DNA of 33,836 bases from Chloroflexia bacterium (GCA_035310405.1 DATGEF010000469.1:1-33836); one strand, 5' to 3'. Counted from the stretch's first letter, positions 1 to 27,114 are shown. Notes: generated by a model from the sequence alone, not told the origin. A program made the numbers and translations.

Positions 1-1325
1 AGGCGGCGGGCCGCGCGCACGGCGCCCATGCGCGGCACCTGCTGGTCGATCTCGGCACTGGTGTCGCGCACATCGGCGTCGACCACGCTGTTCCACTGGT
101 CGCCCAGGTAGCGGGTGAGCTCGTTGCGGACCGCGGCCGCCTCGAGCGGCAGGCTGCCGGGCATGATCAGCGCGCTGTCGTCGTCGGTGCGCCAGATCTC
201 GTGGATGGCCTTGGCCATCAGGCGGAGGACGCCCCGGGTGCGCTGGAAGCGCTCCAGGCTGGCCCAGTCCTCGTAGAGGCGGTCGAAGACCTCCGGGTGC
301 AGCGGGTAGCTGGCGATCATGCGGCGCTCGTAGGCGGCCTCGCGGCACTCCTGCGGGAAGTCGGTGGGGTTCTGGCGGTAGAGGCTGCCGAAGGCCGCGA
401 CCGTGGCGTCGCGGGCGGCCTCGTCGGTGATCGGGCCGAAGAGCCGGCGGCGGACGACCTCGAAGGACTCGTGAACCTCGACCGGCTGCCAGACCTCTTC
501 CATGCGGCCGAAAACCTTCTCGACCTTGGTCAGCACGGTGCGGCCCGCCGCGCCGCCGAGCTCGTCGTCCGACTCGGGGATGGAGGCGATGAGCATCGCC
601 GTGGGCGTCGAGCGCACGGCCTCGGTCAGGGCTTGGAGGAAGGTAAGGTTGGCGCTGAGGCTGCCGGCGCGCAGCTTCTTGACGGGCGCTTCCAGGTTAC
701 GGAGGAAGGCGACCAGCTCGTCCATCAGGATCACACAGGGCCCCACCTGGTCGAGCAAACGGCGGAGCTGGTCGGCGCCGGGCGCCACGCCCGCCTGGTC
801 GGCATCCTCGACTATCTGGTAGCCGCGCAGGTTGCCGAGCTGCGCGGCGATCTCGCCCCAGAGGGTATGGACCTCGACACCCAGTGGGGTCAGGATCGGT
901 GAGGGGTCCGTGGCACTCAGGTCGGTGCCGACGATGACCGCCACCCCGACCTGGGGCGGCATGCCCCCCGCTTCCTCCACCAGCTCGCGCACCGCGGGCA
1001 CGGCCTGCGCCTCGGCCGGGGCGCGGAGCAGGTGGTAGAGGGCAATCATGGTGTGCGTCTTGCCGCCGCCGAAAGCGGTCTTGAGCTGGACCACGGGCGC
1101 CTCGCCCTGGCCGCGCATGCGGGTGAGGGCGGCGATCAGCAGGCGGCGCATGCCGGCGGTAAGGTAGGTGCGGCGGAAGAACTCGCCGGGGTCGCGATAC
1201 TCGTCCTTCTCTTTACCCCGGCGCACGTCGGCCAGGTTGGCGGCGAACTCGGCCTGTAGGTAGCGGCCGCTCTGGACGTCGGGGTGCGGCGCGACGATGT
1301 GGCGCCAGGGGGTCAGGATGGGCAT
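1..1325 (-). CDS. DUF499/BrxC-like AAA ATPase, the ATPase component of the helicase-methylase-ATPase (Hma-type) operon; partial, 3' end runs off the window
   Basis: It is absent from the ORF track because it is open at position 1. My translation of the minus strand from the ATG at 1325-1323 gives MPILTPWRHIVAPHPDVQSGRYLQAEFAANLADV...VVQLKTAFGGGKTHTMIALYHL (Walker A GGGKTH)...CVILMDELVAFL (Walker B-like)...ASYPLHPEVFDRLYEDWASLERFQRTRGVLRLMA. This is the typical DUF499 N-terminal layout. The + strand ORFs 201..902, 502..822, 832..1038 and 1032..1259 are antisense artefacts of this gene. Confidence 0.85.
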   Translation of the reverse strand, partial: MPILTPWRHIVAPHPDVQSGRYLQAEFAANLADVRRGKEKDEYRDPGEFFRRTYLTAGMRRLLIAALTRMRGQGEAPVVQLKTAFGGGKTHTMIALYHLLRAPAEAQAVPAVRELVEEAGGMPPQVGVAVIVGTDLSATDPSPILTPLGVEVHTLWGEIAAQLGNLRGYQIVEDADQAGVAPGADQLRRLLDQVGPCVILMDELVAFLRNLEAPVKKLRAGSLSANLTFLQALTEAVRSTPTAMLIASIPESDDELGGAAGRTVLTKVEKVFGRMEEVWQPVEVHESFEVVRRRLFGPITDEAARDATVAAFGSLYRQNPTDFPQECREAAYERRMIASYPLHPEVFDRLYEDWASLERFQRTRGVLRLMAKAIHEIWRTDDDSALIMPGSLPLEAAAVRNELTRYLGDQWNSVVDADVRDTSAEIDQQVPRMGAVRAARR

Positions 1326-1351: not shown

Positions 1352-2014
1352 TTATAGCTGTAAATAGATCAAATAGAGACCGAAAGCGCTGGTTCTAGAG
1401 TTATCAGGGTCGGTATTCTGGCCATAGTATTCTTGAAAAAGACTTTGCAGATCAGCTAAATAACTGTTGATTTGTTGCCGACTTTGAATTCTCTCACCTA
1501 CTTCACATGACACGACTCGTTCAATAAAATGCCCCCACCGACTTTCTGCTGCTAAGCACTTATATGGAGTCTTGGCTCTTGGATTATTATACCAAGCGTT
1601 TGTGTCATTGTGACAACCAGGACGCCAGAAGATACAATGTTCTAGAGCGGATCGTGATATTTTCCTGTTAAGAAATGTTGGCAAGCAATAGAATATTTCC
1701 TTTCGGCGTTGTAAAAGCGAAAATTGCCCCTTAGGATTTGCAAAATCCCATCTAATTCTTGAATAATCTAATGATGTGTTAGTTTGCGTTGATCTTACCT
1801 TCGTCTGCTTGAACTGCAAGCCAATTATTTTGCCATCCATATATAAATGCTCGTCGGCTGGCCAAGTAACCTCATCCCTTGGTGAAACTGCCCAAATCAA
1901 TGACCTCATCCCAATTCTGCTAAAATAATCCTCAATTTGCTGAACAGTCCAGGCTTCGTATTCGCGCTCTTGAGGTATTGAAAGGTATCGCTGCAGGAAA
2001 ACTGGCATCCGCAT
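1352..2014 (-). CDS. Hypothetical 220-aa protein with no family I recognise; possible PD-(D/E)xK-like nuclease motif; low-GC cargo gene embedded in the operon
   Basis: It is a clean ORF in a region of sharply lower GC (23/60 GC by hand count at 1441-1500). An AAAGGGA Shine-Dalgarno-like sequence lies upstream of the ATG. It sits 26 bp upstream of the DUF499 start on the same strand. The sequence has E16/E18/E20 in an N-terminal helix-like stretch, then W-P-A-D54, and 13 residues later L-Q67-F-K69 (nt 1808-1861). This resembles a D...(D/E/Q)xK nuclease core. The functional call is inference only. Confidence 0.8.
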   Translation of the reverse strand: MRMPVFLQRYLSIPQEREYEAWTVQQIEDYFSRIGMRSLIWAVSPRDEVTWPADEHLYMDGKIIGLQFKQTKVRSTQTNTSLDYSRIRWDFANPKGQFSLLQRRKEIFYCLPTFLNRKISRSALEHCIFWRPGCHNDTNAWYNNPRAKTPYKCLAAESRWGHFIERVVSCEVGERIQSRQQINSYLADLQSLFQEYYGQNTDPDNSRTSAFGLYLIYLQL

Positions 2015-2061: not shown

Positions 2062-2230
2062 CTACAGCTCTAACTGGCCTTGTATTGCCCGCGACCCCAC
2101 CGCCGCCGCCAGCCGTTGGATCTCGGGCCAGTCGGCGACGAGATTGTTGTAGCCCAGCGCGTCCTCGGTCCAGCCGTGGCCGGGCGCGCTCGCGACCTGG
2201 TAGAGCGCGTAGGCGAGGATGCGGGCCTGC
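2062..2230 (-). pseudogene. Orphan 3'-terminal fragment (about 56 codons plus stop) of a second DUF1156 methyltransferase allele
   Basis: The minus-strand reading gives ...ARILAYALYQVASAPGHGWTEDALGYNNLVADWPEIQRLAAAVGSRAIQGQLEL*. The intact gene ends ...ARTLAYALYQVASAPGHGWTEDALGYNNLVADWPEIQRLAAAVPGRPTQLGFGV*. The stop codon is at the same distance (36 nt) from the repeat in both copies. Homology ends abruptly at 2230, and there is no upstream coding continuation; ORF 2062..2478 beyond that point overlaps the KAP gene 3' end and is spurious. Confidence 0.8.
2098..2230. repeat. Direct repeat copy A (133 bp), partner at 4555-4687
   Basis: Hand alignment of 2098-2230 against 4555-4687 gives 7 mismatches in 133 nt, in the same orientation, with an offset of 2457 bp. 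This high-GC segment is embedded between the low-GC 220-aa gene and the KAP gene. Confidence 0.9.
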
Positions 2231-2296: not shown

Positions 2297-4501
2297 TTAG
2301 GAGTCACTGGCGATCCTTTCTGTCCCCTGCTCAGAGGCTCCGGGCTCGAAAGGTTCATGCGGATCGATTCCCTGCTGTCTTTTAGCATACCCGATCTCAA
2401 ACTGCCGAATGACCTCCACCTCATTCTCATCAAGTGTTCCATCACTTGTGATTTGCTGCAGGCGAGCGTGGAGCGCATCAGCGTCCAGAAAAGGGGTCAA
2501 GGATTCAAGATCCATACTCTGGCGCACGTGAGTTGTCGCGTCGGTTAGTGAGAGTAATCTTCGTGTGTCCACGAAACAGTCCAAGAAGGCCAGGAGCCTA
2601 TGAACATCTTCAGTACTCGATTGGACCCAGTGTCGAACTGGTTGTTCGCCAACGTGCTCCCGCCAAAACCGGAGCGTTCGTCCCAAATTGGGAGACTCCA
2701 GCAGATACCCACCCTGCGCGGCATCCTGGATTCTCGCTACAACAAGCCTGTCTAACTCTTCCCACTCCGCGAGGGTAATGAGTGGTTCTGGTGCTACGGT
2801 GCCACCGTATTTACCATGCTCCGCACCGAGTGCCTCCGCGAGTTGCACTATTGTCGCGATGGCCGGGCTTTGCTCCATGGCGCCGTTTAACACTGTGACC
2901 CGGCTTGGTAGCGGAAGCCTATCCAGGAGGCCAGTCACCACCCTGTACAGTATGGTATTAAGCGACAAACTACGCACCCCCGCCCCCTTATCAGATAGGA
3001 GGAGTTGGTCACCGACCTGTAGCAACGCCGTGACAATTATTGCGGTGTTCTCATGTGGGATGTGCTGCTCGACGTAATCCCCAACGTAAGACAAGAAGAT
3101 GCGAAGGCGAGTCGTACCGTCGACCCCCTGCTGCTTGCCGAGTTCCAGGAGTTTTGCACTCAACTGATCTGTGTTGTTGGCCAATGCCAGTATGGCGCGC
3201 ATTTCCATGTTTGAAATGCTATCGCTCGGAACCGCCATACGAAAATAGATCTCAAATTTGCTCCGGCTGGCGACACGTAGTTCTCGCCTCCATCGGTGTT
3301 CCCATTCTGATCCGTAGTGTGTGTTTGTCCAGACAGCATCAAGTTTCGGGAAAAGGTTCCGCAACAGGCGTTGCAGCGCCTTCGGGTCCGCCACCTGTGC
3401 CTCACTAATCAGGGTGTCATAGAATTCGCGCTGAGTAGAGAGGTCAGGCGTACTGCGACTGCCTGAGTAGGAGTTGGGAGCAGTGCCAGCAAACATATCA
3501 GGATGCTGCCGAATTGCATCGTAGACAGTGGGGCAAAAGAGACGCAGACTCTCAATTGCGACAAAGTCTATGGGGTTGACTTCCGCATGGACGACTGGAT
3601 AGGTGAAAGCTAAGGCGTTCATGAGACGCGCCACGTCCCTGGGAGTCTTCAAGAACTTAGTGATGGGCGGGAACGTTAGATTCCAGCGCCCTTGATCGAG
3701 GAGATCAGGGGAAATGTCCCCTAATAATTCCGTCAAATGCTCTGCACACAGGCGACCAAGCTGCTCCTGACCCAGGCTGGGTAGTTGGATAGGCACCTGA
3801 ATAATCTTATCCAGATAGTCAGCTCCACGCGCTCCTTGCAGTCCACCGAGTGCCTCGGTTACAACGTCGCGGTCGAACGCTAACAGGTAGACCACATTGG
3901 GGAAATTTGCAACGGCTTTGACTAAGCGAAATAACTGACGAATTTCATCAGATGTTAATCGATCAATATCATCGATAATTACAAGTATTCGCTTGTTACT
4001 AAGCCTAAGAGTTGCAGAGATCTGCTCTTTGAGAGCAGATACATCGCCTCGTTCGCGCTTCGACAAACGCGCTACTAGCTTTGGGAACCAAGCTACTGAT
4101 TCCGGTAGAGGCGCATCCGATACAACATCAGCGAACTGCCCGAGCCTATCGAGAAACTCCTTCCCTACACTTTTCCATTTGCGTGCGAGAGTTGATTTGA
4201 GTTGACTGAAAAAACTCCTCGTTAGGTCTTCTTGTCCCGAGAACCACCACGGATTGAATCGAACGATTACTGGCTGATTCTCGTCCGTCTCTTGCTGCAG
4301 GTACTGTTCTACAAACTCCAATAGCGTTGACTTACCCGCGCCCCAAGAACCATAGATCGCTATGACGAGGCCATGTGGGGGCGTCTGCTTCGTGATACTC
4401 TGTGCCAGCTTCTGTGCGTAGGGGGCATAGCCAAGGCGGTCCTTTTTAGGATCGGTCAGAGGTTGATCTGCAGACCATTGGCTATTCTGGGGTAATCCCA
4501 T
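2297..4501 (-). CDS. KAP-family P-loop NTPase (734 aa), soluble form without the transmembrane insert
   Basis: The N-terminus is DPKKDRLGYAPYAQKLAQSI...GLVIAIYGSWGAGKSTLLEFV (Walker A, nt 4325-4351). This is followed by VRFNPWWF and then KRILVIIDDIDRLTSDEIRQLFRLVKAV (Walker B). That is the canonical KAP order and spacing. I see no hydrophobic TM segments between Walker A and B. A strong SD (GGGGGAGG) lies upstream of the ATG, 17 bp downstream of the methylase stop. GC is intermediate to low (21/60 at 3961-4020, 33/60 at 2701-2760). Confidence 0.9.
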   Translation of the reverse strand: MGLPQNSQWSADQPLTDPKKDRLGYAPYAQKLAQSITKQTPPHGLVIAIYGSWGAGKSTLLEFVEQYLQQETDENQPVIVRFNPWWFSGQEDLTRSFFSQLKSTLARKWKSVGKEFLDRLGQFADVVSDAPLPESVAWFPKLVARLSKRERGDVSALKEQISATLRLSNKRILVIIDDIDRLTSDEIRQLFRLVKAVANFPNVVYLLAFDRDVVTEALGGLQGARGADYLDKIIQVPIQLPSLGQEQLGRLCAEHLTELLGDISPDLLDQGRWNLTFPPITKFLKTPRDVARLMNALAFTYPVVHAEVNPIDFVAIESLRLFCPTVYDAIRQHPDMFAGTAPNSYSGSRSTPDLSTQREFYDTLISEAQVADPKALQRLLRNLFPKLDAVWTNTHYGSEWEHRWRRELRVASRSKFEIYFRMAVPSDSISNMEMRAILALANNTDQLSAKLLELGKQQGVDGTTRLRIFLSYVGDYVEQHIPHENTAIIVTALLQVGDQLLLSDKGAGVRSLSLNTILYRVVTGLLDRLPLPSRVTVLNGAMEQSPAIATIVQLAEALGAEHGKYGGTVAPEPLITLAEWEELDRLVVARIQDAAQGGYLLESPNLGRTLRFWREHVGEQPVRHWVQSSTEDVHRLLAFLDCFVDTRRLLSLTDATTHVRQSMDLESLTPFLDADALHARLQQITSDGTLDENEVEVIRQFEIGYAKRQQGIDPHEPFEPGASEQGTERIASDS

Positions 4502-4518
4502 GTGACGTCCGCCTCCCC

Positions 4519-7343
4519 CTACACCCCGAACCCCAGCTGCGTCGGCCGCCCCGGCACCGCGGCGGCAAGCCGCTGGATCTCGGGCCAGTCGGCGACGAGG
4601 TTGTTGTAGCCCAGCGCGTCCTCCGTCCAGCCGTGGCCGGGCGCGCTCGCGACCTGGTAGAGCGCGTAGGCGAGGGTGCGGGCCTGCTCGGCGACGCCGC
4701 CGAGGGCCGCGGCCACCGCGGCCGCCGCGGCGTTGCCGCCCTGGCGGTGCGCGGCGACCAGGTGGTGCGTGGCGCTCCAGATGGTGAGCGCGGGCTCGTC
4801 GCGCGGGTCCCAGGCATCCTGGTAAGCGGCCGCGCCGGCCGGGTAGAGCTGCACAAAGCCCCCGCCCTGCTGCAACAGGCCCTCGCGGGCCAGCCGGGTC
4901 AACGAGATATTCGCGCCCTTGCTCATGCTCTCGGCTTCGCCATAGCGCCCGGGTTTCGTGCCGTAGACCTTGTACCAGCGGAGGCAGAACTGCGTGGCCG
5001 GGTCCAGATCGCCTTCCTGCTCGGCGAAGTAGGTCTGGATGACTTCGTTGATCGCGACCAGCGCAGCGCGCAAGGTCATGGGCCGGCCATCCGGCTCCAG
5101 CACTTTAGCATAAGCAGAGAAGACGGCCATGCCGGGCCCGATGGCCGCCTGGTCGAGGTCGACAGGGGCGACGCGGCCACTGGTGAGCACGGTGAGTGCG
5201 GCGGGCAGACTGCTCTTGAGGGCGCGCTGGAACTCGCGGCGGGTACCGAGCGGTGCCTCTGACGGGCGCGGTCGGCAGACAAGCACGATAGAAGAGGCAA
5301 GATTATTGAACCCCTTCTTCAGTGCTGTAAGCATCTCGGTCCGCATTGGCCAGGTGCCAGTGATCTGGAAGCCCGCTTTGAGTAGTGCTTCAAGCATGGT
5401 CTCCCAGCCCGTCGAAATAGCTGCGGGTGCTTTATTTCCACTTTCATCCTCATCACCGGCCTCGGCCTGCTTAAAGGCATAATAGATAGTTAGCGGGTAG
5501 TTGGGGTTTGCCACAGAATACATGCGCTCAAACACTGTCGCCAGGCCTTTCTCGAAGTACTCCTTGGCGGCTTCACTACTTCCCGCAAAACGATACGGCA
5601 TTGCTACGAGTTCTTGTGTCTTAGGAGCTAGTAACGTACTAAACAAACTTGGGTAAATTTTACTAAGAGTACGGCGAAGCCATACATAGAAAAAGTCAGA
5701 CAAATCAGCATAACCAATATTATCGTAATAAGGCGGATCAGTAGAAATGATCATACCATTGCCACTTATGTTCCTAGCATCTAGATTCATGACATGAACA
5801 CGCTGGTCATTTGCGACTTTAGGCAAGCTCGCACTCAGATTCCGTGCGAGGTTTTCGATTATGACCGCCCATGAGCCCGAGCTCTTTCCAGTTGGATTCG
5901 CCTCTGCAAAATTCCACTGCATAGGAATCGCTTGCCGGGCGAACAGATTCCGAGGACATTGTGCAACTGGCTCCCAGGGCGAGAGACTATTATTGAGGTC
6001 CGCTAATTTGTCTAACGCAAATGCCAAATATGTGGAGATAGCATCAGCATAAGCAAGAGCACCGCTGCCTCCGTCGTCGAGACTCTTCCCGTCCTCTGTC
6101 AACCCTGCAGCAACAGCGTCGATCCGTATCTTCTCTCGGGCTTCGCTTATGAGATCACTAAAAGTCGCGAGTCCGACTAACTGTCGATTAGTAAAAAGGT
6201 CACCGACTGTACTCAGTCCATATAGTGGGCACCAGATTGCTCTTCTATCACCAGCAAGTTGCTGTTCAGGCTTCCAATAAGGTTGGGCCTCCCCGGCGAT
6301 CTTGATCTGGTCACTATCAGGCGGCAGATAGATTCGTCCATTCTGGCTATGGGCCGCAATCGCCATTAATTGCATGGCCATCCGGCCTGAAACGCCTTCA
6401 TCCTTGATGTGCTGCTCGGGCGCAATCGTCCCGCAGGCTAAACAGCGGAATATCGAGCCGCGTCCGACTTTCGTGGGATCTGGCGATGCATCACTGCCGG
6501 ACTTGATGCTGAAGGTTACGACAGCAGGTCGCTGAGAATGGTCCACATTAGGCTCGGCCCATACCTTCGTTCCCGGCTTAGCAGACAACACAAACGAACG
6601 GATGAGTGGCATCTGCGCCCCACATGCCGGGTTAGGGCATTTGACCGTTCGCGCCCATAACCAAGCGATGATTGGGGCTTTAGTAATCCCGTACTCTTTG
6701 GGCAATTTCACCATGGGATAGAGATGCCCAAGCCGTTCTTCCGCCTGGTCACGAATCCATTGTCCGTAGTACGACAGATCCTCGATTAGCCCAGAAGCCC
6801 CGGCCCATGTACTTACACGCGCACCGCCCCTGTGGGTTTTCGGATTAACTGGAGCAGACCCTCCGAATCGCAGCGGGATTTCAACGATGGCCTTTGTAAT
6901 CAGAACTGATACAGGATTGAGATCACTTGCATAAACCTCTAGGCCGAGGCGCAAAGCTTCCAGAGGAATCGCACCGCTCCCGGCGAAAGGATCGAGCATC
7001 GGCGGGGGGTTTCCGTTTGTACATCTGTCTATCTCGATCCGTGCCTGTCGAAGGACTTGTGAGTCGTTGATGTTTTCCCACTTTACCAGCGATTCGATGA
7101 GGCGAAAGAGGCGAAGGCGTTCTGCGTTTTGAGTCTCCTCATCAGGAAACTCATCAGGGTGGCTAGAGGGATCATCCACTAGTGACGCAAAGAGGACCGC
7201 TCTACAAGTTGCGAGCGGGCGGCGCGCCCACCATGGATGGAGCGTAGCAGGATGCCCATGACGTATCGTCTTTTCCCGGGCCGAGGCGGCGTTGATGGCC
7301 TCCAGGGGCAGGGCGACTTCGATCAGCTTCCTGCGCGGCGCGG

Positions 7344-7347
<4 letters not shown>
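4519..7347 (-). CDS. DUF1156-type DNA methyltransferase (N6-adenine/N4-cytosine class, DPPY motif, Zn-ribbon), 942 aa
   Basis: The N-terminus KLIEVALPLEAINAASAREKTIRHGHPATLHPWWARRPLATCRAVLFASL is the DUF1156 signature. An AdoMet-binding-like LDPFAGSGAIPLEALRLG follows. Cys pairs CPNPAC...CLAC form a Zn-ribbon. The catalytic motif is STDPPYYDNIGYADLSDFFYVWLRR (DPPY at nt 5728-5739). The ATG overlaps the helicase stop by 4 nt (ATGA at 7344-7347). Confidence 0.92.
4555..4687. repeat. Direct repeat copy B (133 bp), inside the 3' end of the intact methyltransferase gene
   Basis: See copy A at 2098-2230. Confidence 0.9.
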
Positions 7348-10958
<3,611 letters not shown>

Positions 10959-11096: not shown

Positions 11097-11319
11097 GAGC
11101 GGACCGATCGTGCCGAGCACGCGGCGCAGAAGGGGATGCGCCGTTATTCGGACTGTGGGAGAGGGCTCGGCCCTCGAAATACTCGCCTCATGACCCGGCG
11201 TAGGATCGGGGCCCACCCACGCGGCCAGAGCGTCGAGGGCCGAGCCCTCTCCCACAGCCGCGTCAGGCGCGGGTAGTGCCCATCACCGACGCCCCGTTGC
11301 ACACACGATCGGTCCGCTC
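11097..11319. repeat. Nested perfect inverted repeats in non-coding DNA (outer 16 bp, inner 25 bp)
   Basis: The outer arms are GAGCGGACCGATCGTG (11097-11112) and CACGATCGGTCCGCTC (11304-11319). The inner arms are CTGTGGGAGAGGGCTCGGCCCTCGA (11153-11177) and its exact reverse complement (11233-11257). Each inner arm also contains its own GAGGGC/GCCCTC palindrome. Confidence 0.85.
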
Positions 11320-11531: not shown

Positions 11532-11563
11532 GGCAGAGCAACTGACTCTTAATCAGTGGGTTC
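11532..11563 (+). other. 32-nt partial copy of tRNA-Lys (D-arm 3' half, anticodon arm, variable loop), inverted relative to the intact gene
   Basis: GGCAGAGCAACTGACTCTTAATCAGTGGGTTC on the + strand is identical to the reverse complement of 11657-11688, which lies inside the tRNA gene. Similarity stops on both sides. Confidence 0.9.
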
Positions 11564-11629: not shown

Positions 11630-11705
<76 letters not shown>

Positions 11706-19615: not shown

Positions 19616-22600
19616 CTACTTCACGGTGAAGGCGCCGCCGTCGCTGTGGCCGAAGACGTCCGGGTAGTAGAGGAGCTCGGCATGGGCGGGCAGCGCCAGG
19701 TAGACGCCCGGCGTGGTTGCCCGCGCATAGTACTCGTAGACGTAGGTGCCGGGGCTCATATAGGTGGCAAAGAGCACCGTGCGGTCGTCGCGCATCTCGA
19801 CGTTATCGAACGGTCCCCAACGATAATACCACTCGTCGTAGATGCCGTAGTGATTACCCTCGGCGTCGCCCTGCTGGAAGCCGGACGGGTTGGTCGGCCG
19901 CTCGGTGAACGAGGTGGTGTTGAGCGAGCCGTTGATCCCCTCCAGGCCGGCAGGCAGCGGATCGGTGACCAGCACATAGTACGAGGTCTCGGGGGCCACG
20001 ATCGTCAGGCGGACCTTGATCAGGTCGCCGGCCGCCGTCTCCTTGATCGGTTCGGCGCTCGCCGTCCCGCTGCTGCCGCCGGTCATCCGGTAATAGGTGC
20101 GGGTGATCGACAGGCCTTCGCTGCGCGCCTTGATGCCCTCCCCGGGCACATAGTAGCGCAGGCTGACCTGGTAGTACATCTTGCCCTTGGTGCCGTCGCG
20201 GGCCAGGGCCAGGTCGCCCAGCGTGTTCTGGGGCATGCCGGCCACCGGCAGCCGCAGGGTGGTCGTGCCGGTCAGGGTGGCGCGGTTGGCCACGCCCTCC
20301 CCGAGCAGCTTATCGAAGGCGCTCACCTGCCAGGTGTAGTCGGCCCCCAGCTCTTTGCTCTGGCGGATGTAGTGGGCCAGGCTGATCAGGCTAATGGCCG
20401 TCTCCTGGGTGCTGAGCCAATGGCCTTCCTTTTCGGCGGTCATCAGCCAGCGCACCGTTTTGGGCACCAGGGGATCGCTGGGGGCCAGGGTGACCAGCGC
20501 GTCGAGGGCCAGGGCGGTGGCGCGGGTGTCCGTGCCCATGCTCCAGTAGTCGGGCTGGCTTTCCTCCCAATGGGCGGTCGTGCTGCTCTGGCGGGCCGCG
20601 GCGGCCAGGCTGTCGAGGACCGTTTTGCTGTCGCTCTGCTGGCCGGCTTTGGCCAGGCCCAGCGCGAGCCAGGCGCGGGCATGGGTGCTGAGGCGCGCCA
20701 CCTGCGCGATCAGATCATGGGCCTCGGTTTGCAGCTGGCCGTCCGTATCATTGCCGCCGGTCGCGCCGAGCAACACATAGTAGCTGTAGGCGCGCATATT
20801 CAGGTGGTAAGTCTCGTCGATGCCCGGCGTCGCGTTTTCCTGCTGAAAGGCTTTCAGCCGATCCAGGCCGCGCGACAGCAGGTCGGGCGGCACGGCATAG
20901 CCGGCATCGCGGGCCGCGGTCAGGCCCTGCACGGTATAGGCCGTTTCCCACCAGTTGGATGGCCCGCGCTCCCACCAGGCCCAGCCGCCATCGGCCTGCT
21001 GGAGCGCGGTCAGCCGCGTGACCGCGCGATCGACCAGGCCCGGGAGCTCGGCGGCGTACGGGGTTTTGAGGCCTTGCTCCTCGTAGACTTGCTCCAGCAC
21101 GACCAGCGGTAAGAAGCGGCTGACCGTCTCATCCGTGCTTTCGTAGGGATATTCTTTCACATAGACGATGCTGTCGACCGTCGCCGCGGCGAGCGACGGC
21201 GAGACCTGGACGACCAGTTCGCCAAGCAGCGGGTTCAGACTGTAGGGCAGGAAGACCGACTCGTCGGCCCGCGTGCCGCTCACTTCGCCGCTGGTGGCGA
21301 CCGCCTCCGGGGCCGCGAACGGCTGCACGGGCAGGTGGGCGGCGACAGCGTCTTCCAGATAGCCGTTGTTGACGTCCAGGGTATGCACCCAGTAGCGCAG
21401 GTTGGCCACGTCACCCTTGCCGACCTGGACGCTCCAGGTCACGACGGCCTGCTCGCCGGCGCCGACGGTGATCGATTGGGCCGCCGGCGGCTGCGCGTCG
21501 AGGGTCAGCGCCCCGCTGACTTCGAGGCTGGCGACCACCTGCAGCGGGCCCGCTGTGTTATTGTGGATGATGGCCTGCGGGTGCGGGTTGTCGCCCGTGG
21601 TCAGGAAGCGGGGCTGGACCGGGCGCAGCAGCAACGGCTGGGTGACCGTGAGGGGCAGGGTCGCCATCCCGGCCCGGGTATCGGCGGTGATGCCCTGGGC
21701 GGTCAGCCGCCAGGTGGTCAGGTTGTCGGGCAGGGGCACGGGCACGGTGGCGCTGCCATCCGGCCCGGTGGTGATGGTCGCCTGCCAGAAAGCGGTGTCG
21801 CGGAAGTCCGTGCGGACTTTCTTGGGCGCCGCGGGCGCGGCGGGCGCCGCCAGGCTCGCGCTGGCGGCTTTATCGGCCGTGGGGGCGGGTATCGCGCCCG
21901 GCTCCACCATGCCGCCCCCCGCGTACCCCGCCGGGCGGCCTTCCTGCTGCCCGGAGCTGAAGCTGGTTGAGGTGGCGACGCCCAGGCCGCGCTCGCTCCA
22001 GAAGGTGCCGAACAGGTCGGCACTGTTGTCGCCGGCCAGGGCGAAGATGGCCTCGTCGACGACGGCCAGGGAGAGTTCGCCCGGCGCCGGGTTGCCCGCG
22101 CTGTCCCGCGTGTGCAGGGTCATCGTCGCCGTGCTGCCCGGCGCGAACGGCCCGGGGCCGACGGGCTCCAGCGTCACGTGCAGCTGCTCCCCGGAGGTGT
22201 CGACCGGCAGGTTGACATAACCCTGCCGTAGCGTGACCTGGTTGGTCCAGTCGACGGGCGCCCCCGGCACCGAGGTCTGAGGCCCCAGCAGGGTGAGGCC
22301 GACGTAGATATTGGGCAGGTCGCCGGCCTCCAGGGGCACGTCGATCGTCGGCGCGCCGCCCTGGAGCGTCAGCACGCGGTAGCGTTTCAGGTGGCCGCGC
22401 TCGACCGTCAGCAGCGCGGTGGCCTGCGGGAAGGGCGAGGTCACCAGGATGTGGGCGGTTTCGCCGATCTTGTATTTCGGCTTATCGGCGACCAGCTTGA
22501 CCTGCTGCTCGTTCTGGTAGCGCCAGGGCACGGTGCCCGGGTCGCTGCTGGCCACCCAGAGCTCAGTGCTGCTGTGGATGAGGTTGCCGCGCGCATCGGT

Positions 22601-25600
22601 GCTTTCGCCGATCACCCGGTATTCGCCGCCGGATGGCGCGGTGAAGAGATACGTCGCGCGGCCCTGGGCATCGGTCGTCACCGTCGCCTGGTCGACGGCC
22701 ACCTCGTTCAACTGCCAGTTGCCGCTGCCGGCGGGCGGGGGCGCCCACTCGCTGCGCACGAAGCGCAACTGCACCACCGCATTGGGCTGCAGATGGGTCG
22801 CATCGGCCGCCACGGTGCGCACGGTGATCGTCGTCGGCTGCTTGGCCGTGGCGATGTAGTCGCCCAGGTGGAGGCCGACGTAGTAGAGCCCCTGGTGGAC
22901 GACCACGCCGGTGCTGGCCGCGACCGCCTGGTTGCTCAGGTCCTGGACCTGGCCCTCGATCTGCAGCGATTTGCTGCCGACCGTGGTGGTCACATAACGG
23001 CTGACGTCCACGGTGAGCATGCCATCTTTGCCCGTCCGCGCCTGGAACGATTGGACGGGGGCCGGCTGCGGCGGCCGAAACGGGCTCATCCTTTCAGCCA
23101 CGTCGTCCACGAGCCAGGGATAGCCGCCCTCCCCGAAGGTATAGGACTCCCCGGTGTCGGGGTCGCTCCAGCCGAAGTAGTACGGGCTGCTCTCCAAGGT
23201 GACGGTGGTCGTGACATTGGCCAGCGGCCCGCCGAAGTAGTAGCTCGTGGCGATCGTGGCCGTGACCGGGTCGCCATGGACGACACTGCCCTGGCCGGCC
23301 GTGACGTTGACCTGGAAGTCCGGCTTACGATATTCCTCGACCTGGAAGCTGGCCGACGCGCTGCTGCCTTCGAGGGTATAGCTCCCGGTGGCGGCGTTGT
23401 CGGGCAAGGTGAACTGGCCGTTATAGGTGCCGACCGCCGAGAGCGTGGCGGTGCCGGTGTAGATGCGGGTCTGCCCTTCGCGCCCATAGGTGTAAGCGGA
23501 GAGATTGACCGTGCCGCCCGCGGCCGGCAGGGTATAGTGGGCGTCGTCGTCGAGCCGGGAGGCGCCGCGGTAGTAGACGACCTGGCCGGGCCGGTAGATC
23601 GGGCGGTCGGTGTAGAGCGCGCCATTGGTCTGGGCGCCGCCCATCCCGGCGGGCTCGATATTCGCATTCCAGCCGGTGAGCACCAGGCTGGTATCGTCCT
23701 GTTGCTCGCCCCAGATGGCGAGGCGGTCATAGCTGGTGCGGTCCAGCTTCAGGCGCAGCACCCCGTCGTCGCCGGTGTGCCCATGCTGGCTGCTTGCCAG
23801 GCCCCCGTTGTTCCAGAGCTCGACGCGCAACGGGTAGTTCGGTACCGGGTGCCCGCTGCCCAGGTCGGCGGCCCAGATCAGCAGGTCGCTGCCCTCGGTT
23901 TTGCTGACCAACCCGGTGCGGCCCACGAGCAAGATAGCCCATCCTTCGAGGGGCTCGGGGCTGTACGGCGTCTGGGCGGTGGCGCGCACGAAGTAGTAGC
24001 CGGGGGGGAGGCGATCGGCCGCGCCGTTGAGGCCCAGCGTCGGATAGAGCGTCGCCGGCCCCTGGCTGCTCGCCGGCACCGGCACATCCCACTCCCGTTT
24101 TAGCTGGCCCGGGTAGCTGGGGGTCGGGTTGGACTGGGGAAAGTAGAGCTGATTGTTCTGGAGGATGCCCCGCAGCTCGCCCTCGTCGATCTGATAGAGA
24201 TGGAGGGTCAACGTGCTGAGATTCGCCGTCTCCAGCTGCACGCGGGACGGGCGATCGGCGTAGACCGGCTGGAAGCTGCCCCCCTTGAGGTCCAGACTGG
24301 GCGGCAGCGGGCCGATCTTGACCTGCCAGGTGGCCGGGGCCACCGGGAAGCCCCACTTGTCGCGCAGGCCCGCCTGGAGCGCAAAATTGTAGGTCGTGTT
24401 GGGCAGCAGCTGCACGGCCTCCGTATAGGCGCTGGTCCCGGAGAAGGTCAGTTGGTTATGGTAGCCTTGCGGCGCCGGGTCGACGGTGAAGTACTGGGCG
24501 ATATCCTGGCCTGAGGCCAGGGGGTTGTTGAATGAAAAGCCAAAGCTGGTGCTGGGCGGGACCGGCTGATCGCCCGAGTTCTCGGGGCTATGGGCTTGGA
24601 CCTGGGTGGGCGTGGTGGTCGTGAACGTCCAGGAGTTATCGTGGGCCGCCAGCTGCACAGCGTTGCCGGTGGCCGGCTTGACCGTGCCCGCCACGAGGAC
24701 ATCGTAGGTCTGGCTGAATTCGAGCAGGCTGCCCGGGGTAAAGGTCAGCACCGTGCTGTCGGGCGACCAGGCATAGTTGCCGGGTAAGGCGGCACTGCGG
24801 TCGTGGACGTGGGATGTGAAGGCCTGCTGGACGGAATCGTGGTCCATCGGCTGATTGAAGCGCACGACGATCGCCGTGTCGAGCGGGACCAGGCTGGTGC
24901 CATTATCCGGCTCGACGCTCAAGATGGCCGGCTTGATCGTCGTGAAGCGGAACGTGGTCCCCTGGCGGAGCCCGATGCCGGTCGCGTCGGGCCAGCCGGC
25001 GTTGGCGGTCACGGCATACTCGGTGGCCGGCAGGAAGCCCGTCGCGGCGTGGAAGCCGGCCGCGGCTGTGCCGAGCCAGACCCAGCGCCCGGCCACGGCC
25101 GGCTGGATCGACACCCACTGGCCGGCGTCCGGCTGATGATCGAGGGCCGTCAGCGGGATCATCGGCCGGTTGAAGCTGATCGTGATAATCGTGTCGGTTG
25201 GAACCTCGGCGGCGCCGGCACTCGGCAGGGTGCGCAGGATCGCCGGCGGCGCGGCCGTCTTGAACTGCACGGCCAGGGGCGCGGCCAGGCCTTGCCCGCC
25301 CTGCGTTTTCGCGCCGCTGCCGACGGTGACGCTATAGGTCGTGCTGGGGGCGAGGGGCGCGTGTGGGGTGAAGACGAGGGTGTTGGTCTGCCAGGTGAAA
25401 TCGCCGGGCGCCGCCGGCTGGAGCACAAACGCCGTCTGGGCGGAGGGATGGTCCATGGCCTCGGAGAAGGTCACGGCGATCGGGGCGAGCCCGGCGATAT
25501 CGCCCGCCCGCATCCCGACCCCGGCGGTGATGCCGAGCACATGCGGCCCGTGGATCACCTGGCGCGGCTCGGGCGTGAAAGTGGCCGCGCCCGCCAGCGG

Positions 25601-25864
25601 TGTCGCGGTACTCGCATCCGGCGGCGGCGGGGCCGGCGGCGTGGTCGTCGGCGGCGGGACGGTGGGAGGTGCCGCCGTCGGCCCCGCGATGGTGGCCGTG
25701 GGGGTCCCGGGCGGCGGTCCGGACTGCCCGCCGGATGCGGTCAAGGCGCTGATGCCCAGCACCAGGACGGCGACGAGCCCGGCGACCAGGATCAGGCCGG
25801 TCCACGGGGGGCTGGATCGCCGGGGGGGCGATCCCGCGGGCGTGGCGGTCGTGTCTTCACTCAT
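19616..25864 (-). CDS. Bacterial alpha-2-macroglobulin family protein (2082 aa), membrane-anchored, with N-terminal SbsA-type Ig-like domains; thioester motif absent
   Basis: The N-terminal TM segment is WTGLILVAGLVAVLVLGISAL, followed by a Pro-rich spacer. Repeated units of the form (F/I)(S/N)xxM...(A/S)F follow, for example VTFSEAMDHPSAQTAF, ISFNRPMIPLTAL and VRFNQPMDHDSVQQAF. A long macroglobulin-domain body comes next, then the A2M thioester-domain region EYPYESTDETVSRFLP (nt 21119-21154) and a terpenoid-cyclase-like alpha/alpha region (QQADGGWAWWE...). I chose the ATG at 25864, 7 nt after a GGGGAGG SD; the track begins one codon earlier at a TTG. Confidence 0.88.
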   Translation of the reverse strand: MSEDTTATPAGSPPRRSSPPWTGLILVAGLVAVLVLGISALTASGGQSGPPPGTPTATIAGPTAAPPTVPPPTTTPPAPPPPDASTATPLAGAATFTPEPRQVIHGPHVLGITAGVGMRAGDIAGLAPIAVTFSEAMDHPSAQTAFVLQPAAPGDFTWQTNTLVFTPHAPLAPSTTYSVTVGSGAKTQGGQGLAAPLAVQFKTAAPPAILRTLPSAGAAEVPTDTIITISFNRPMIPLTALDHQPDAGQWVSIQPAVAGRWVWLGTAAAGFHAATGFLPATEYAVTANAGWPDATGIGLRQGTTFRFTTIKPAILSVEPDNGTSLVPLDTAIVVRFNQPMDHDSVQQAFTSHVHDRSAALPGNYAWSPDSTVLTFTPGSLLEFSQTYDVLVAGTVKPATGNAVQLAAHDNSWTFTTTTPTQVQAHSPENSGDQPVPPSTSFGFSFNNPLASGQDIAQYFTVDPAPQGYHNQLTFSGTSAYTEAVQLLPNTTYNFALQAGLRDKWGFPVAPATWQVKIGPLPPSLDLKGGSFQPVYADRPSRVQLETANLSTLTLHLYQIDEGELRGILQNNQLYFPQSNPTPSYPGQLKREWDVPVPASSQGPATLYPTLGLNGAADRLPPGYYFVRATAQTPYSPEPLEGWAILLVGRTGLVSKTEGSDLLIWAADLGSGHPVPNYPLRVELWNNGGLASSQHGHTGDDGVLRLKLDRTSYDRLAIWGEQQDDTSLVLTGWNANIEPAGMGGAQTNGALYTDRPIYRPGQVVYYRGASRLDDDAHYTLPAAGGTVNLSAYTYGREGQTRIYTGTATLSAVGTYNGQFTLPDNAATGSYTLEGSSASASFQVEEYRKPDFQVNVTAGQGSVVHGDPVTATIATSYYFGGPLANVTTTVTLESSPYYFGWSDPDTGESYTFGEGGYPWLVDDVAERMSPFRPPQPAPVQSFQARTGKDGMLTVDVSRYVTTTVGSKSLQIEGQVQDLSNQAVAASTGVVVHQGLYYVGLHLGDYIATAKQPTTITVRTVAADATHLQPNAVVQLRFVRSEWAPPPAGSGNWQLNEVAVDQATVTTDAQGRATYLFTAPSGGEYRVIGESTDARGNLIHSSTELWVASSDPGTVPWRYQNEQQVKLVADKPKYKIGETAHILVTSPFPQATALLTVERGHLKRYRVLTLQGGAPTIDVPLEAGDLPNIYVGLTLLGPQTSVPGAPVDWTNQVTLRQGYVNLPVDTSGEQLHVTLEPVGPGPFAPGSTATMTLHTRDSAGNPAPGELSLAVVDEAIFALAGDNSADLFGTFWSERGLGVATSTSFSSGQQEGRPAGYAGGGMVEPGAIPAPTADKAASASLAAPAAPAAPKKVRTDFRDTAFWQATITTGPDGSATVPVPLPDNLTTWRLTAQGITADTRAGMATLPLTVTQPLLLRPVQPRFLTTGDNPHPQAIIHNNTAGPLQVVASLEVSGALTLDAQPPAAQSITVGAGEQAVVTWSVQVGKGDVANLRYWVHTLDVNNGYLEDAVAAHLPVQPFAAPEAVATSGEVSGTRADESVFLPYSLNPLLGELVVQVSPSLAAATVDSIVYVKEYPYESTDETVSRFLPLVVLEQVYEEQGLKTPYAAELPGLVDRAVTRLTALQQADGGWAWWERGPSNWWETAYTVQGLTAARDAGYAVPPDLLSRGLDRLKAFQQENATPGIDETYHLNMRAYSYYVLLGATGGNDTDGQLQTEAHDLIAQVARLSTHARAWLALGLAKAGQQSDSKTVLDSLAAAARQSSTTAHWEESQPDYWSMGTDTRATALALDALVTLAPSDPLVPKTVRWLMTAEKEGHWLSTQETAISLISLAHYIRQSKELGADYTWQVSAFDKLLGEGVANRATLTGTTTLRLPVAGMPQNTLGDLALARDGTKGKMYYQVSLRYYVPGEGIKARSEGLSITRTYYRMTGGSSGTASAEPIKETAAGDLIKVRLTIVAPETSYYVLVTDPLPAGLEGINGSLNTTSFTERPTNPSGFQQGDAEGNHYGIYDEWYYRWGPFDNVEMRDDRTVLFATYMSPGTYVYEYYARATTPGVYLALPAHAELLYYPDVFGHSDGGAFTVK

Positions 25865-25979
25865 CAAATAACCTCCCCAGATCAGATTCAGATTCGGTAG
25901 TCCTCGATATAGAGATGCCGAACCCCGCTATAAAGTTCCCGGCCGATTTTCAGGGTGGGGACGCCTGCGAGGGTGTGGA

Positions 25980-26960
25980 TCATTCGCCGCGGCGGCGATA
26001 CGGGACCTGCAGGAGCCCGGCCGCTTTGCGCTTGGCGGCTTCGGGCCGGCGATCGTAGCGGGCCGTGGTCTGGACATTGGCATGGCCGGCGAGCTTGGCC
26101 ACGGTGGCGATATCGGCGCCGGCATCCAGCAGATCGCTGACAAAGGTGCGGCGCATGTCGTGCGGCGAGAAGTGGGTCAGGCCGGCCTGCTTGCCGCGCT
26201 TATTCAGGATGTTATAGACGGCCTGGGCGGTGAGGTGGCGGGGCAAGCACTTGCCGGTTTTGGTGATCGGCCAGAACAGCGCCCCCGCGCCGTCCCCGCG
26301 GATGGCCAGCCAGTCGGCGAGGGCGCCGGCGGCGCCGCCGAGCACATACACCGCGCGTTCTTTGCCCCCTTTGCCGCGGACCACCAGGCGATCGGTGGCC
26401 GGATCATAGTCGGCGTAGGCCAGGCCGGCGGCTTCCTCGCGCCGCAGGCCCGCGGTGTAGAGCAAGCTGATCAGCGCGGCGTCGCGGGCGCCGGCGGGGG
26501 TCTTGTCGGCGGCACAGATGCGGAGTAAGGCATCCAGCTCGGCCGACTCCAGTTCGCGCCCGGCGGGCAGCGTCGTGCCTTTGACGACCGGCAGATCGGC
26601 GGCCCGGGCGTATTCTTCGGCGCTCATCTGCTCCAGGCGCCAGGCCATCTTCAGGGTGCCGCGCAGGGCAGACAGCATTTTATTGGCCGTCGCCGGCTTA
26701 TAGGCGTCCGCGACCAGGGCGCGGATGGCCATGGTATGCTGAAAGCGCAACGCCCCCCAGGGACAGGTCAGCGCGATCGCCTTGCCGTCGGTCAGCAGCC
26801 CAGCGATCACGTTCAGGGCCTGGTGCATCGTGCGGCGGCCGCTCGGCTTCAAGTGCGCCAGGTAGACCGCCGCCGGGTTCTGGTCCTGGGCCGGGTAGAC
26901 GCGCGGCGCCAAAGCCGCGTCGGAGCGGGTAGTCGTCAGCGCCACAGCGGGATCGGGCAT
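25980..26960 (-). CDS. Tyrosine site-specific recombinase (phage integrase/Xer family), 326 aa
   Basis: The catalytic-domain motifs are ARDAALISLLYTAGLRREE (Arg I), HFSPHDMRRTFVS (H-x-x-R) and LAGHANVQTTARYDRR (His, Tyr nucleophile). I placed the start at MPDPAVALTT (ATG 26960, GGAG SD). The track's 518-aa version adds an implausible Arg/Ser/Thr-rich extension that runs across the divergent promoter region. Confidence 0.88.
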   Translation of the reverse strand: MPDPAVALTTTRSDAALAPRVYPAQDQNPAAVYLAHLKPSGRRTMHQALNVIAGLLTDGKAIALTCPWGALRFQHTMAIRALVADAYKPATANKMLSALRGTLKMAWRLEQMSAEEYARAADLPVVKGTTLPAGRELESAELDALLRICAADKTPAGARDAALISLLYTAGLRREEAAGLAYADYDPATDRLVVRGKGGKERAVYVLGGAAGALADWLAIRGDGAGALFWPITKTGKCLPRHLTAQAVYNILNKRGKQAGLTHFSPHDMRRTFVSDLLDAGADIATVAKLAGHANVQTTARYDRRPEAAKRKAAGLLQVPYRRRGE

Positions 26961-27021
26961 CGTGGGGCTCCAATCGGTGCGGGATGCACGGCCATCCCGG
27001 TAAACACGATTCTCATAATTT

Positions 27022-27030
27022 ATTGTAGCA
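27022..27030 (-). promoter_or_regulatory. Putative extended -10 element (TGCTACAAT) upstream of the recombinase gene
   Basis: The minus strand reads GTGCTACAATAA, 62 nt upstream of the ATG at 26960, in a locally AT-rich stretch. Confidence 0.45.
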
Positions 27031-27088
27031 CACACGGGGCGGCACCGCAATTGCCGCCGCGCCGCTTTCACTCTGCGGGGCGATCCTC

Positions 27089-27094
27089 TATAAT
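27089..27094 (+). promoter_or_regulatory. Putative -10 box (TATAAT) for the SpoIIE-family phosphatase gene
   Basis: A perfect TATAAT lies 21 nt upstream of the GTG at 27115 and 39 nt upstream of the ATG at 27133. The -35 match is weak. Confidence 0.4.
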
Positions 27095-27114
27095 TGGCCG
27101 GTGGTGCGAGGTAA

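Follow-up and report, generated by a model that had tools for sequence, protein, structure and literature searches.

Introduction

The KAP P-loop NTPases take their acronym from Kidins220/ARMS and PifA (PMC13552941). Within this group, PifA is described as a well-characterized representative that lacks transmembrane (TM) helices, and it aborts infection by phage T7 with depolarization of the membrane and leakage of nucleotides (PMC13001434). PifA of the F plasmid (F PifA; the reference used here is a protein of 741 amino acids (aa) from an IncF plasmid) senses gp1.2 and gp10 of T7 (PMC8594841). Phage defense has been proven experimentally for other KAP NTPases, and this antiphage role of KAP defense proteins depends on the Walker B motif and on the C-terminal region (PMC13552941). 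Here, we analyze a gene for a PifA-like KAP NTPase at positions 2297-4501 of a 33,836-nucleotide (nt) stretch of DNA from a Chloroflexia bacterium (GCA_035310405.1, DATGEF010000469.1:1-33836), and we refer to this whole stretch as the window. The gene lies within an operon of the Hma system and, as we argue below, was probably captured there as exchangeable cargo.

Hma is a published anti-phage system (PMC11232893) that has been renamed a Type-1 BREX-related system (PMC12839542). Inserted genes are found in ~66.5% of Hma systems, and the operon has been called an insertion hotspot for defense genes; the cargo reported in Hma comprises Septu, PARIS, Ppl, an AAA_21 pair and a GmrSD-like gene, and in Halomonas two genes are invariably found inserted between the hmaB and hmaC genes of the Hma loci (PMC11232893). 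A KAP or PifA gene is mentioned neither in this study of Hma (PMC11232893) nor in the survey of BREX-related systems, including its supplementary files (PMC12839542).

Two further described proteins are relevant here. The anticodon nuclease PrrC is embedded in the Type Ic restriction-modification (RM) locus EcoprrI (PMC1484252, PMC2610378). Tmn, a defense protein of the YobI family, has two TM helices inserted in its P-loop domain and causes Mg2+ export and plasmolysis (PMC13001434).

Results

The gene encodes a distant, full-length PifA homologue

Position numbers refer throughout to the whole window, and the gene, like all operon features listed below, is on the minus strand. The plus-strand reading of 2297-4501 was rejected because this frame is full of stop codons, and the gene was assigned to the minus strand for that reason. 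The features of the gene and of its product are as follows.

2297..4501, minus strand: gene for the PifA-like KAP P-loop NTPase, 734 aa; the coordinates take in the stop codon (open reading frame (ORF) and translation, PADLOC PifA model, hhalign)
3593..4429, minus strand: KAP_NTPase domain, residues 25-303 (Pfam PF07693, E 1.5e-60, profile positions 1-292 of 293)
4325..4351, minus strand: Walker A motif GSWGAGKST, residues 51-59, with the lysine K57; G, G and K are invariant in the alignment of 33 family sequences
4241..4255, minus strand: NPWWF, residues 83-87, the KAP signature after strand 2; the family shows no variation at N, P, W and F
3959..3985, minus strand: Walker B motif LVIIDDIDR, residues 173-181, with D177 and D178; the family shows no variation at D, D, D and R
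2348..3550, minus strand: helical region of the alpha-solenoid-like type at the C-terminus, residues 318-718, with homology to the C-terminal half of F PifA; putative array for sensing or interaction
4502..4518, minus strand: spacer of 17 nt between hmaB and the PifA-like gene, with the Shine-Dalgarno sequence GGGGAGG (read from the sequence)

The PADLOC model for PifA matches residues 7-697 of the protein over profile positions 3-711 of 720 (E 2e-115, 385 bits), while the runner-up models, QatA and PDC-S20, reach at most 70 bits and are confined to short stretches of the NTPase. With the same PifA model, F PifA scores 963 bits and relatives of the window protein score 390-440 bits. When the window protein was compared directly with F PifA by BLASTP, only the NTPase half was matched (residues 6-327, 25% identity, E 1e-27), and homology of the C-terminal half was therefore put to a separate profile comparison. 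A profile made from 33 family sequences was aligned to F PifA by hhalign with a probability of 100% (E 2.6e-41) over 660 columns covering PifA residues 13-735. Because this alignment extends across the C-terminus, the residues that a first-pass annotation of the window had called uncharacterized correspond to the C-terminal region of PifA. Judged by these alignments, the gene encodes a distant full-length KAP NTPase of the PifA family that is colinear from end to end with F PifA, to which the window protein is ~22-25% identical.

The family is large. At E <= 1e-30, an exhaustive HMMER scan of 1.84 billion cluster representatives returned 5,122 proteins, each standing for a 50%-identity cluster. 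The best 150 of these 5,122 are mostly end-to-end proteins of ~720 aa. Among the matches listed, the closest relatives of the window protein are 41-46% identical to it. The residues of the Walker A and Walker B motifs are invariant in the 33-sequence alignment and, as this conservation indicates, the gene is a real and conserved one. A membrane helix is unsupported, since the highest Kyte-Doolittle mean over 19 residues is 1.30 in the PifA-like protein (1.27 in F PifA) and the usual level for a TM helix is ~1.6. A homologue of PifC was found neither in the window (tblastn with F PifC, E <= 1) nor in any of the PifA-like loci examined.

Thus, the window protein resembles F PifA in having an N-terminal, TM-less KAP NTPase followed by a helical region of ~430 residues, in its length (734 versus 741 aa) and in being, like F PifA, a single-gene defense candidate. 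It differs in that its gene is chromosomal and lies inside an Hma operon of a high-GC host from a soil metagenome, with no pifC and no F-type operon context. The window protein also shares the KAP NTPase core with QatA, PDC-S20, EF_KAP and relatives of the latter from gut metagenomes. However, its QatA score is 68-70 bits against a curated cut-off of 600, the NCBIfam match (68.4 bits) covers residues 21-110 only and no qatBCD genes are adjacent, while EF_KAP has TM helices and an unrelated C-terminus. Similarly, Tmn is a single-gene defense with a P-loop NTPase, but the window protein has no TM segment and reaches only 16.5 bits with the Pfam YobI-ATPase model, for which the cut-off is 27.

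These data bear on several claims of the first-pass annotation. The 734-aa ORF that it placed at 2297-4501 exists, on the minus strand. All three motifs that it named (GSWGAGKST, NPWWF and LVIIDDIDR) are present, with the correction that the Walker A lysine is K57 and not K58, and the protein indeed lacks a TM insertion, the maximum hydropathy being 1.30. Because the KAP_NTPase domain covers residues 25-303, the region that follows the core comprises ~430 residues instead of the ~500 originally given, and this region aligns with F PifA to residue 735. The annotation had, in addition, considered the gene a candidate for an undescribed type of defense and had given the transmembrane form Tmn as the one characterized KAP NTPase in defense. 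Neither statement is supported: the protein is a full-length PifA-family member captured by a PADLOC model, and QatA is a soluble KAP defense protein. [quoted passage not shown]

The gene lies between hmaB and hmaC of an Hma operon and is bracketed by copies of the hmaB tail

The Hma genes of the window and the two copies of the hmaB tail are located as follows.

7344..10958, minus strand: hmaA, SNF2 helicase with a C-terminal NOV_C (PD-(D/E)xK) nuclease, 1204 aa (PADLOC HmaA, 1348 bits, full length; Pfam SNF2-rel_dom, Helicase_C and NOV_C)
4519..7347, minus strand: hmaB, DUF1156 N6-adenine methyltransferase, 942 aa, of mosaic GC content (PADLOC HmaB, 1058 bits; Pfam DUF1156)
1..1325, minus strand: hmaC, DUF499 ATPase, of which only the first 441 codons lie within the window (open frame with a GC content at third codon positions (GC3) of 0.91; NCBIfam DUF499_antiphage, E 1.1e-41; homologues carry PF04465)
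4519..4687, minus strand: copy A of the hmaB 3' tail, with which the functional methylase gene ends; left arm of the direct repeat (repeat search)
2062..2230, minus strand: copy B of the hmaB 3' tail, an orphan remnant of 56 codons with its own stop and right arm of the direct repeat (repeat search)

The SNF2 and NOV_C domains, the DUF1156 methylase and the DUF499 ATPase are all encoded in one operon, which identifies the host locus as Hma. The order is hmaA, hmaB, PifA-like gene, an ORF of 220 codons (the 220-aa ORF) and hmaC, that is, the canonical hmaA-hmaB-hmaC order plus insertions. The first-pass annotation had described a defense-type gene in an RM-like operon, and this is supported.

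The ATG of the PifA-like gene lies exactly 17 nt past the TAG of the 942-aa DUF1156 methylase gene. The spacer, GGGGAGGCGGACGTCAC, was read directly and contains the Shine-Dalgarno sequence already noted in the first pass, the core of which stops 10 nt ahead of the ATG. No promoter- or terminator-like site was found between hmaB and the PifA-like gene in a scan for sigma-70 promoters and terminators, the model of which may not suit this host. As a consequence, co-expression is probable, and the PifA-like gene is most likely co-transcribed with hmaB. The gene is also compositionally foreign, as had been stated: its GC content is 0.527 and its GC3 0.55, compared with 0.71 and 0.94 for hmaA and hmaC.

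The PifA-like gene is bracketed by a direct repeat of the hmaB tail of 169 nt with 86% identity between the copies and a spacing of 2457 nt. Over a core of 133 nt the identity is 94.7%, and the seven differences in this core are six synonymous changes and one change from T to I. By contrast, the last 12 codons have strongly diverged, with both copies retaining the stop codon in register. Copy B is also 81.6% identical to the hmaB tail of L094, which is the closest Hma relative of the window (HmaA 84% and HmaC 81-90% identical). Read from these substitutions, the pattern is the one left when two hmaB alleles, having evolved under selection, are subsequently joined, and not that of a fresh duplication in situ. 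It fits either a single-crossover insertion of an hmaB tail together with the PifA-like gene, or an event in which a second hmaB copy, once present, had its body replaced. To our knowledge, a duplication of the hmaB tail flanking Hma cargo has not been described.

Three other Hma loci (L099, L132 and L137) have two full-length tandem hmaB genes, the tail copies of which are 2.7-2.9 kb apart, and such tandem pairs are a possible source of the orphan tail remnants of the window and L094. From the length that the matches span, L106 and L117 are also judged to contain tandem hmaB genes. The proposal that duplication of the hmaB tail is a general feature of Hma cargo was rejected, since only L094 shares it and the three other loci with multiple tails turned out to have two complete tandem hmaB genes.

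L094 contains neither a PifA-like gene nor the 220-aa ORF. Instead, its slot is occupied by a module resembling PD-(D/E)xK/T4 endonuclease IV proteins, a degenerate remnant of the hmaB tail and ~0.9 kb of low-GC DNA, and then hmaC follows. In other words, the layout of hmaB, first cargo, tail remnant, second cargo and hmaC is common to L094 and the window, and the contents differ. As a separate observation, the hmaB frame of L094 runs without a stop into this module of ~320 residues (L094:6156-8780); this read-through is either a true methylase-nuclease fusion or the result of a frameshift or stop error in the long-read assembly, in which hmaC is also split.

The survey of Hma comprised 80 further loci, fetched by way of an HmaC alignment, and L094. 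A PifA-like protein was present in none of these 81 other Hma loci, and the same is true of the 220-aa ORF. Both hmaB and hmaC are found in 70 of the 81 loci, and the gap between them is shorter than 110 nt in 11 loci, measures 0.5-0.9 kb in 37 and reaches 1-5 kb in the other 22; the gap in the window is 3.2 kb. The class with gaps of 0.5-0.9 kb is probably accounted for by a HEPN extension of HmaC.

On the basis of the bracketing tail repeat, the different cargo in L094 and the absence from the 81 other Hma loci, the PifA-like gene is facultative cargo and not a component of Hma. The window thereby resembles the roughly two-thirds of Hma systems with foreign genes between hmaB and hmaC, and it differs in that a PifA/KAP gene is not among the reported cargo. 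The same three observations leave the earlier suggestion of a coupling to a methylase/helicase/DUF499 machine unsupported, and a partnership with the 220-aa protein is equally unsupported because the latter is absent from PifA-like loci and its family occurs alone in other islands. The best fit of the two options put forward in the first pass is that of an independent single-gene system hitch-hiking in a defense hotspot.

PifA-like genes recur next to restriction genes

The neighborhoods of relatives were surveyed for the best 80 of 455 confirmed relatives, which were obtained with an NPWWF-based pattern search of contigs from one genome per species. An RM or defense gene is a neighbor in at least 23 of 81 loci, a minimum given that the search relied on just a few query proteins. 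No partner is conserved: among 88 immediate neighbors in 45 non-redundant loci outside DISARM, no family occurs in more than three loci, and restriction genes are found among the neighbors as well as gyrB, CTP synthase and a symporter. The 220-aa ORF is absent from all 80 PifA-like genome loci examined, and remnants of Hma were found in only one of the 80, the degraded locus L062.

A minority of the loci follow a clear pattern. In class 1 DISARM, a PifA-like gene lies directly between drmMI and drmA in 10 loci from different beta- and gammaproteobacterial genera, including Acidovorax, Caldimonas, Denitrificimonas, Alkalimonas, Methylocaldum and Panacagrimonas.

L038:9989-12130 (Acidovorax facilis DSM 649, NZ_JAMXAX010000006.1): DISARM-embedded PifA-like gene
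L040, L044, L049, L052, L058, L059, L067, L068 and L070: further DISARM-embedded loci

In most of these loci the start of the PifA-like gene overlaps or abuts the stop of drmMI, and the gene is often trailed by a gene for a 650-aa protein resembling restriction endonucleases (REases). The DISARM proteins of these loci share 42-90% identity with their counterparts in L038, and the PifA-like genes group in a single clade, which argues that the association with DISARM is old. No mention of a PifA-like clade inside class 1 DISARM was found in the searchable DISARM literature, and no annotated DISARM-embedded example was found in the plasmid collection.

Type I RM loci of ~5 lineages show a similar arrangement. 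The PifA-like gene lies between hsdR and hsdM in L011 and L024, follows hsdR after a gap of 9 nt in L047 and L051, and adjoins hsdM in L006-L008. Other relatives are located beside Mrr, REase, ResIII or OLD-family genes. In Nitrospirae bacterium JdFR-86 (L062:6398-14027), a degraded Hma locus has turned into a defense island: HmaA survives as a 215-aa remnant in which the N-terminus is connected to the NOV_C tail, and genes for an OLD-like ATPase-TOPRIM protein, a PifA-like protein and a SIR2-like protein lie between this remnant and a DUF1156 fragment, followed by two integrase-family genes.

In a neighbor-joining tree without support values, which gives a coarse picture only, the window protein, the DISARM clade and the protein from L062 branch off at three separate positions. 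F PifA forms a distant outgroup, and its long branch falls outside the ~720-aa family. The scattered positions of the first three indicate that embedding occurred repeatedly.

The predicted structure combines a switch-type NTPase with a helical solenoid

A full-length AlphaFold2 model, built from the family alignment, has a mean predicted local distance difference test (pLDDT) score of 84.9 and a predicted template-modeling (pTM) score of 0.76. It shows an alpha/beta P-loop core, mostly with a pLDDT above 85 in the KAP_NTPase domain, and then a long helical region with one pair of beta-hairpins near the end. The best structural matches in the PDB are the RdrA rings of RADAR (E ~1e-7, template-modeling score ~0.32, 11-13% identity), followed by ORC/Cdc6, NLR/Apaf-1/NRC proteins, clamp loaders and a BrxC fragment. 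All of these matches of the NTPase are nucleotide-driven oligomerizing switches.

The C-terminal part was modeled alone (residues 318-733, 416 residues) as an alpha-solenoid-like structure with a pLDDT of 81. An effector or sensor domain had been envisaged for this region in the first pass; Foldseek returned no PDB match for the C-terminal model at E <= 1e-3, and the weak matches are generic solenoids of the TPR/HEAT/PUF/importin type. By sequence, nothing useful was found in the PDB for the whole protein (only DotB, at E 0.52), and the profile of the C-terminal sequence matched no chain at E <= 1. No effector or sensor domain beyond the NTPase was matched in Pfam, NCBIfam or PHROGs, and the viral structures in BFVD gave generic P-loop/AAA+ matches only.

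Conservation declines along the protein. Within the family, the mean pairwise identity is 56% in the NTPase and has dropped to 38% by the last segment; when the window protein is compared with the family, the corresponding values are 50% and 26%. In the model, the architecture is that of a switch NTPase followed by an increasingly variable solenoid, as in STAND sensors, with no recognizable enzymatic effector. The likeness to RdrA and to STAND/Avs proteins, in which a P-loop switch of the ORC/Cdc6-STAND class is likewise followed by helical domains, suggests a ring or another oligomer upon activation. However, the resemblance to RADAR is structural only, and the window contains no RdrB deaminase-like neighbor. 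Similarly, the Pfam scores of the window protein for NACHT and NB-ARC are below threshold, and an Avs-type effector domain was not detected next to its solenoid-like C-terminus; by sequence the protein does not belong to the STAND group, which it would resemble in its mode of action.

Discussion

Based on the data reported here, we consider it likely that the gene is a stand-alone PifA-family gene of the abortive-infection type that was captured as exchangeable cargo in the hmaB-hmaC slot of Hma. In this model, the gene would have arrived by homologous recombination with a second hmaB allele or a paralogue, as the scar suggests, and this event would have left the 169-nt duplicate of the hmaB tail on the far side. 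The same repeats would permit renewed excision or a swap of the cargo. By homology and from the structural model, the N-terminal NTPase may function as an NTP-driven switch of the ORC/Cdc6, STAND and RdrA structural class, and the C-terminal alpha-solenoid, which is more variable towards its end, may recognize a phage protein. Recognition would lead to nucleotide-dependent activation, probably with oligomerization, and the outcome would be arrest or death of the infected cell by a lesion resembling the membrane lesion caused by F PifA. Because there is no enzymatic effector domain, the lethal step must make use of a partner, of host components or of the assembly itself. Phage defense by the PifA-like gene is itself something that we infer.

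Several observations weigh against this model. The only characterized member of the family, F PifA, is just 22-25% identical to the window protein, with the C-terminal homology visible at the profile level alone; the trigger, the target phages and the mechanism of killing are therefore not confidently transferable from one protein to the other. For F PifA itself, the mechanism is unresolved and the range of phages very narrow (PMC8594841), and some authors doubt that defense is its primary role (PMC8594841; PMC13552941). The PifA-like ~720-aa subfamily is known from sequences and models alone, and because no recognizable effector domain was found, the abortive step is purely an inference. Finally, independent clades repeatedly show the gene placed tightly behind a methylase or HsdR gene, probably with translational linkage, and chance insertion alone does not obviously predict such recurrent linkage.

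This last point leads to the alternative that survives best, although we regard it as unlikely, namely that the NTPase is a guard or backup comparable to PrrC. It would be kept latent by the methylase/helicase complex or would monitor this complex, and a phage anti-restriction factor that disables the complex would bring about abortive infection. PrrC provides a precedent because it is encoded within EcoprrI, silenced by it and freed from it by the Stp peptide of T4 (PMC1484252, PMC2610378), and backup suicidal effectors in loci of this type have been proposed in the BREX-related survey (PMC12839542). The recurrent embedding in three kinds of restriction-type operons (class 1 DISARM, Type I RM and Hma) by separate clades of the family is consistent with such a role, as are the RM or defense neighbors in at least 23 of 81 loci. 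However, most members have no restriction-type neighbor (58 of the 81 loci in the survey, with the 23 remaining a lower bound) and some are beside housekeeping genes; none of the 81 other Hma loci has the gene; and because the hosts differ, one family would have to read out three complexes. Moreover, F PifA acts without an RM partner, and defense genes cluster inside RM operons for reasons that are unrelated to function. PrrC and the PifA-like protein are both NTPase-containing proteins, of demonstrated or candidate abortive-infection type, inside an RM operon, so that PrrC is a possible model for control. The two differ in that PrrC combines an ABC-type NTPase with a defined C-terminal RNase and prrC is always linked to RM, while the PifA-like protein has a KAP NTPase with no recognizable effector and its family is mostly not linked to RM.

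In its most general and rather improbable form, this alternative would make PifA-like NTPases widespread guard-type backup modules for Hma, class 1 DISARM and Type I RM, co-translated with the methylase or HsdR, silent until a phage anti-restriction factor disables the machine and then setting off abortive infection, with the duplicated hmaB tails in Hma serving as homology arms for swapping between loci.

Even less probable, in our view, is that the gene has no active role in defense and is either a decaying passenger or encodes a KAP NTPase with another cellular role. F PifA restricts only T7 and one relative in the BASEL collection, and its primary role has been questioned (PMC8594841; PMC13552941); also, some homologues are located beside housekeeping genes. 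Against this, the ORF is intact, its catalytic residues are invariant and the full-length fold is predicted with confidence; the family is large and is kept at full length (the 5,122 representatives at E <= 1e-30); its members are enriched in RM, DISARM and Hma loci and in defense islands; and other KAP NTPases are experimentally antiphage (PMC13552941). An integral accessory subunit of this Hma variant that senses or regulates restriction or methylation would agree with the in-operon position 17 nt after hmaB behind a Shine-Dalgarno sequence and no internal promoter or terminator signal, and with the presence of HmaC (DUF499) and BrxC-type ATPases among the weaker structural matches of the NTPase domain, but it is very improbable given that all 81 other Hma loci, including the closest relative, lack the gene, that a recombination scar and a foreign composition mark it, that none of HmaA, HmaB and HmaC is missing and each is full length or in frame, leaving nothing to replace, and that the family is overwhelmingly found outside Hma.

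Returning to the captured-cargo model, it is important to distinguish what is known from what is added here. The PifA/KAP family, the Hma system and the Hma insertion hotspot are known already, and the gene is recognizable by PADLOC. Since the family as well as Hma with its hotspot are known and annotation tools label the gene, it is not an undescribed defense type; it is a divergent PifA-family member in a context not previously listed. We found no report in the searchable literature of a recurrence of PifA-like genes in Type I RM loci, or of hmaB-tail repeats around Hma cargo. The embedding in DISARM, the recurrence in Type I RM and the hmaB-tail repeats are leads and not discoveries.

The mechanism of PifA is still unsolved after decades, and the ~720-aa subfamily, with thousands of 50%-identity clusters in bacteria and archaea, is uncharacterized. 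A tractable member of this subfamily could help to explain how a TM-less KAP NTPase with no effector domain arrests or kills a cell. The recurrent tight placement in class 1 DISARM and Type I RM is a lead towards layered immunity in the style of PrrC, and a guard function, if true, would give PifA a general biological rationale. The duplicated hmaB tail and the different cargo of a close relative illustrate in concrete terms how a hotspot within an operon exchanges its contents.

Other features of the Hma operon and of the window

Two further features belong to the Hma locus.

1352..2014, minus strand: 220-aa ORF, GC 0.41, second independent cargo gene of the hmaB-hmaC slot (ORF reading)
11630..11705, minus strand: tRNA-Lys(CTT), immediately upstream of hmaA (ARAGORN)

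The 220-aa ORF has no match in Pfam, PADLOC, NCBIfam or PHROGs. Its family numbers ~49 proteins, all unannotated, which are found alone in islands that bear integrases or are P4-like, and beside a Type I RM system. The ORF may be an independent small defense gene. By eye, a D...GLQFKQTK stretch in it looks PD-(D/E)xK-like.

Within hmaB, the 5' two-thirds have a GC3 of 0.55-0.57, compared with ~0.95 for the last 160 codons; the GC3 of the 220-aa ORF is 0.38. The hmaB gene of L094 (4876-7816) has the same low-GC core and is ~61% identical there, compared with 84% for HmaA. This suggests that the part of hmaB that determines specificity has been exchanged or evolves rapidly. In the public gene calls for L083 and L084, which are the window's own contigs, a 360-aa product is called for the 3' third of hmaB only and the low-GC 5' part is uncalled, while the frame of 942 codons is intact; the missed 5' part is probably a gene-caller artifact of the compositional mosaic.

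The tRNA-Lys gene upstream of hmaA places the Hma locus in a genomic-island position. Between the tRNA and hmaA, ~100 nt downstream of the tRNA, there is a perfect 29-nt inverted copy of its anticodon-arm region (11532-11560 versus 11660-11688), which could have been left behind when an island integrated or could form a structured element. An inverted repeat in the intergenic region upstream of hmaA (11153-11192 and 11218-11257; arms of 40 nt, 83% complementary, with a loop of 25 nt) could form a regulatory or terminator structure.

The remainder of the window is ordinary chromosomal content. In this part, a gene for a 2083-aa bacterial alpha-2-macroglobulin (19616-25867, minus strand) adjoins a gene for a 518-aa protein of the tyrosine-integrase family (25980-27536, minus strand), and both are unrelated to the PifA-like gene.

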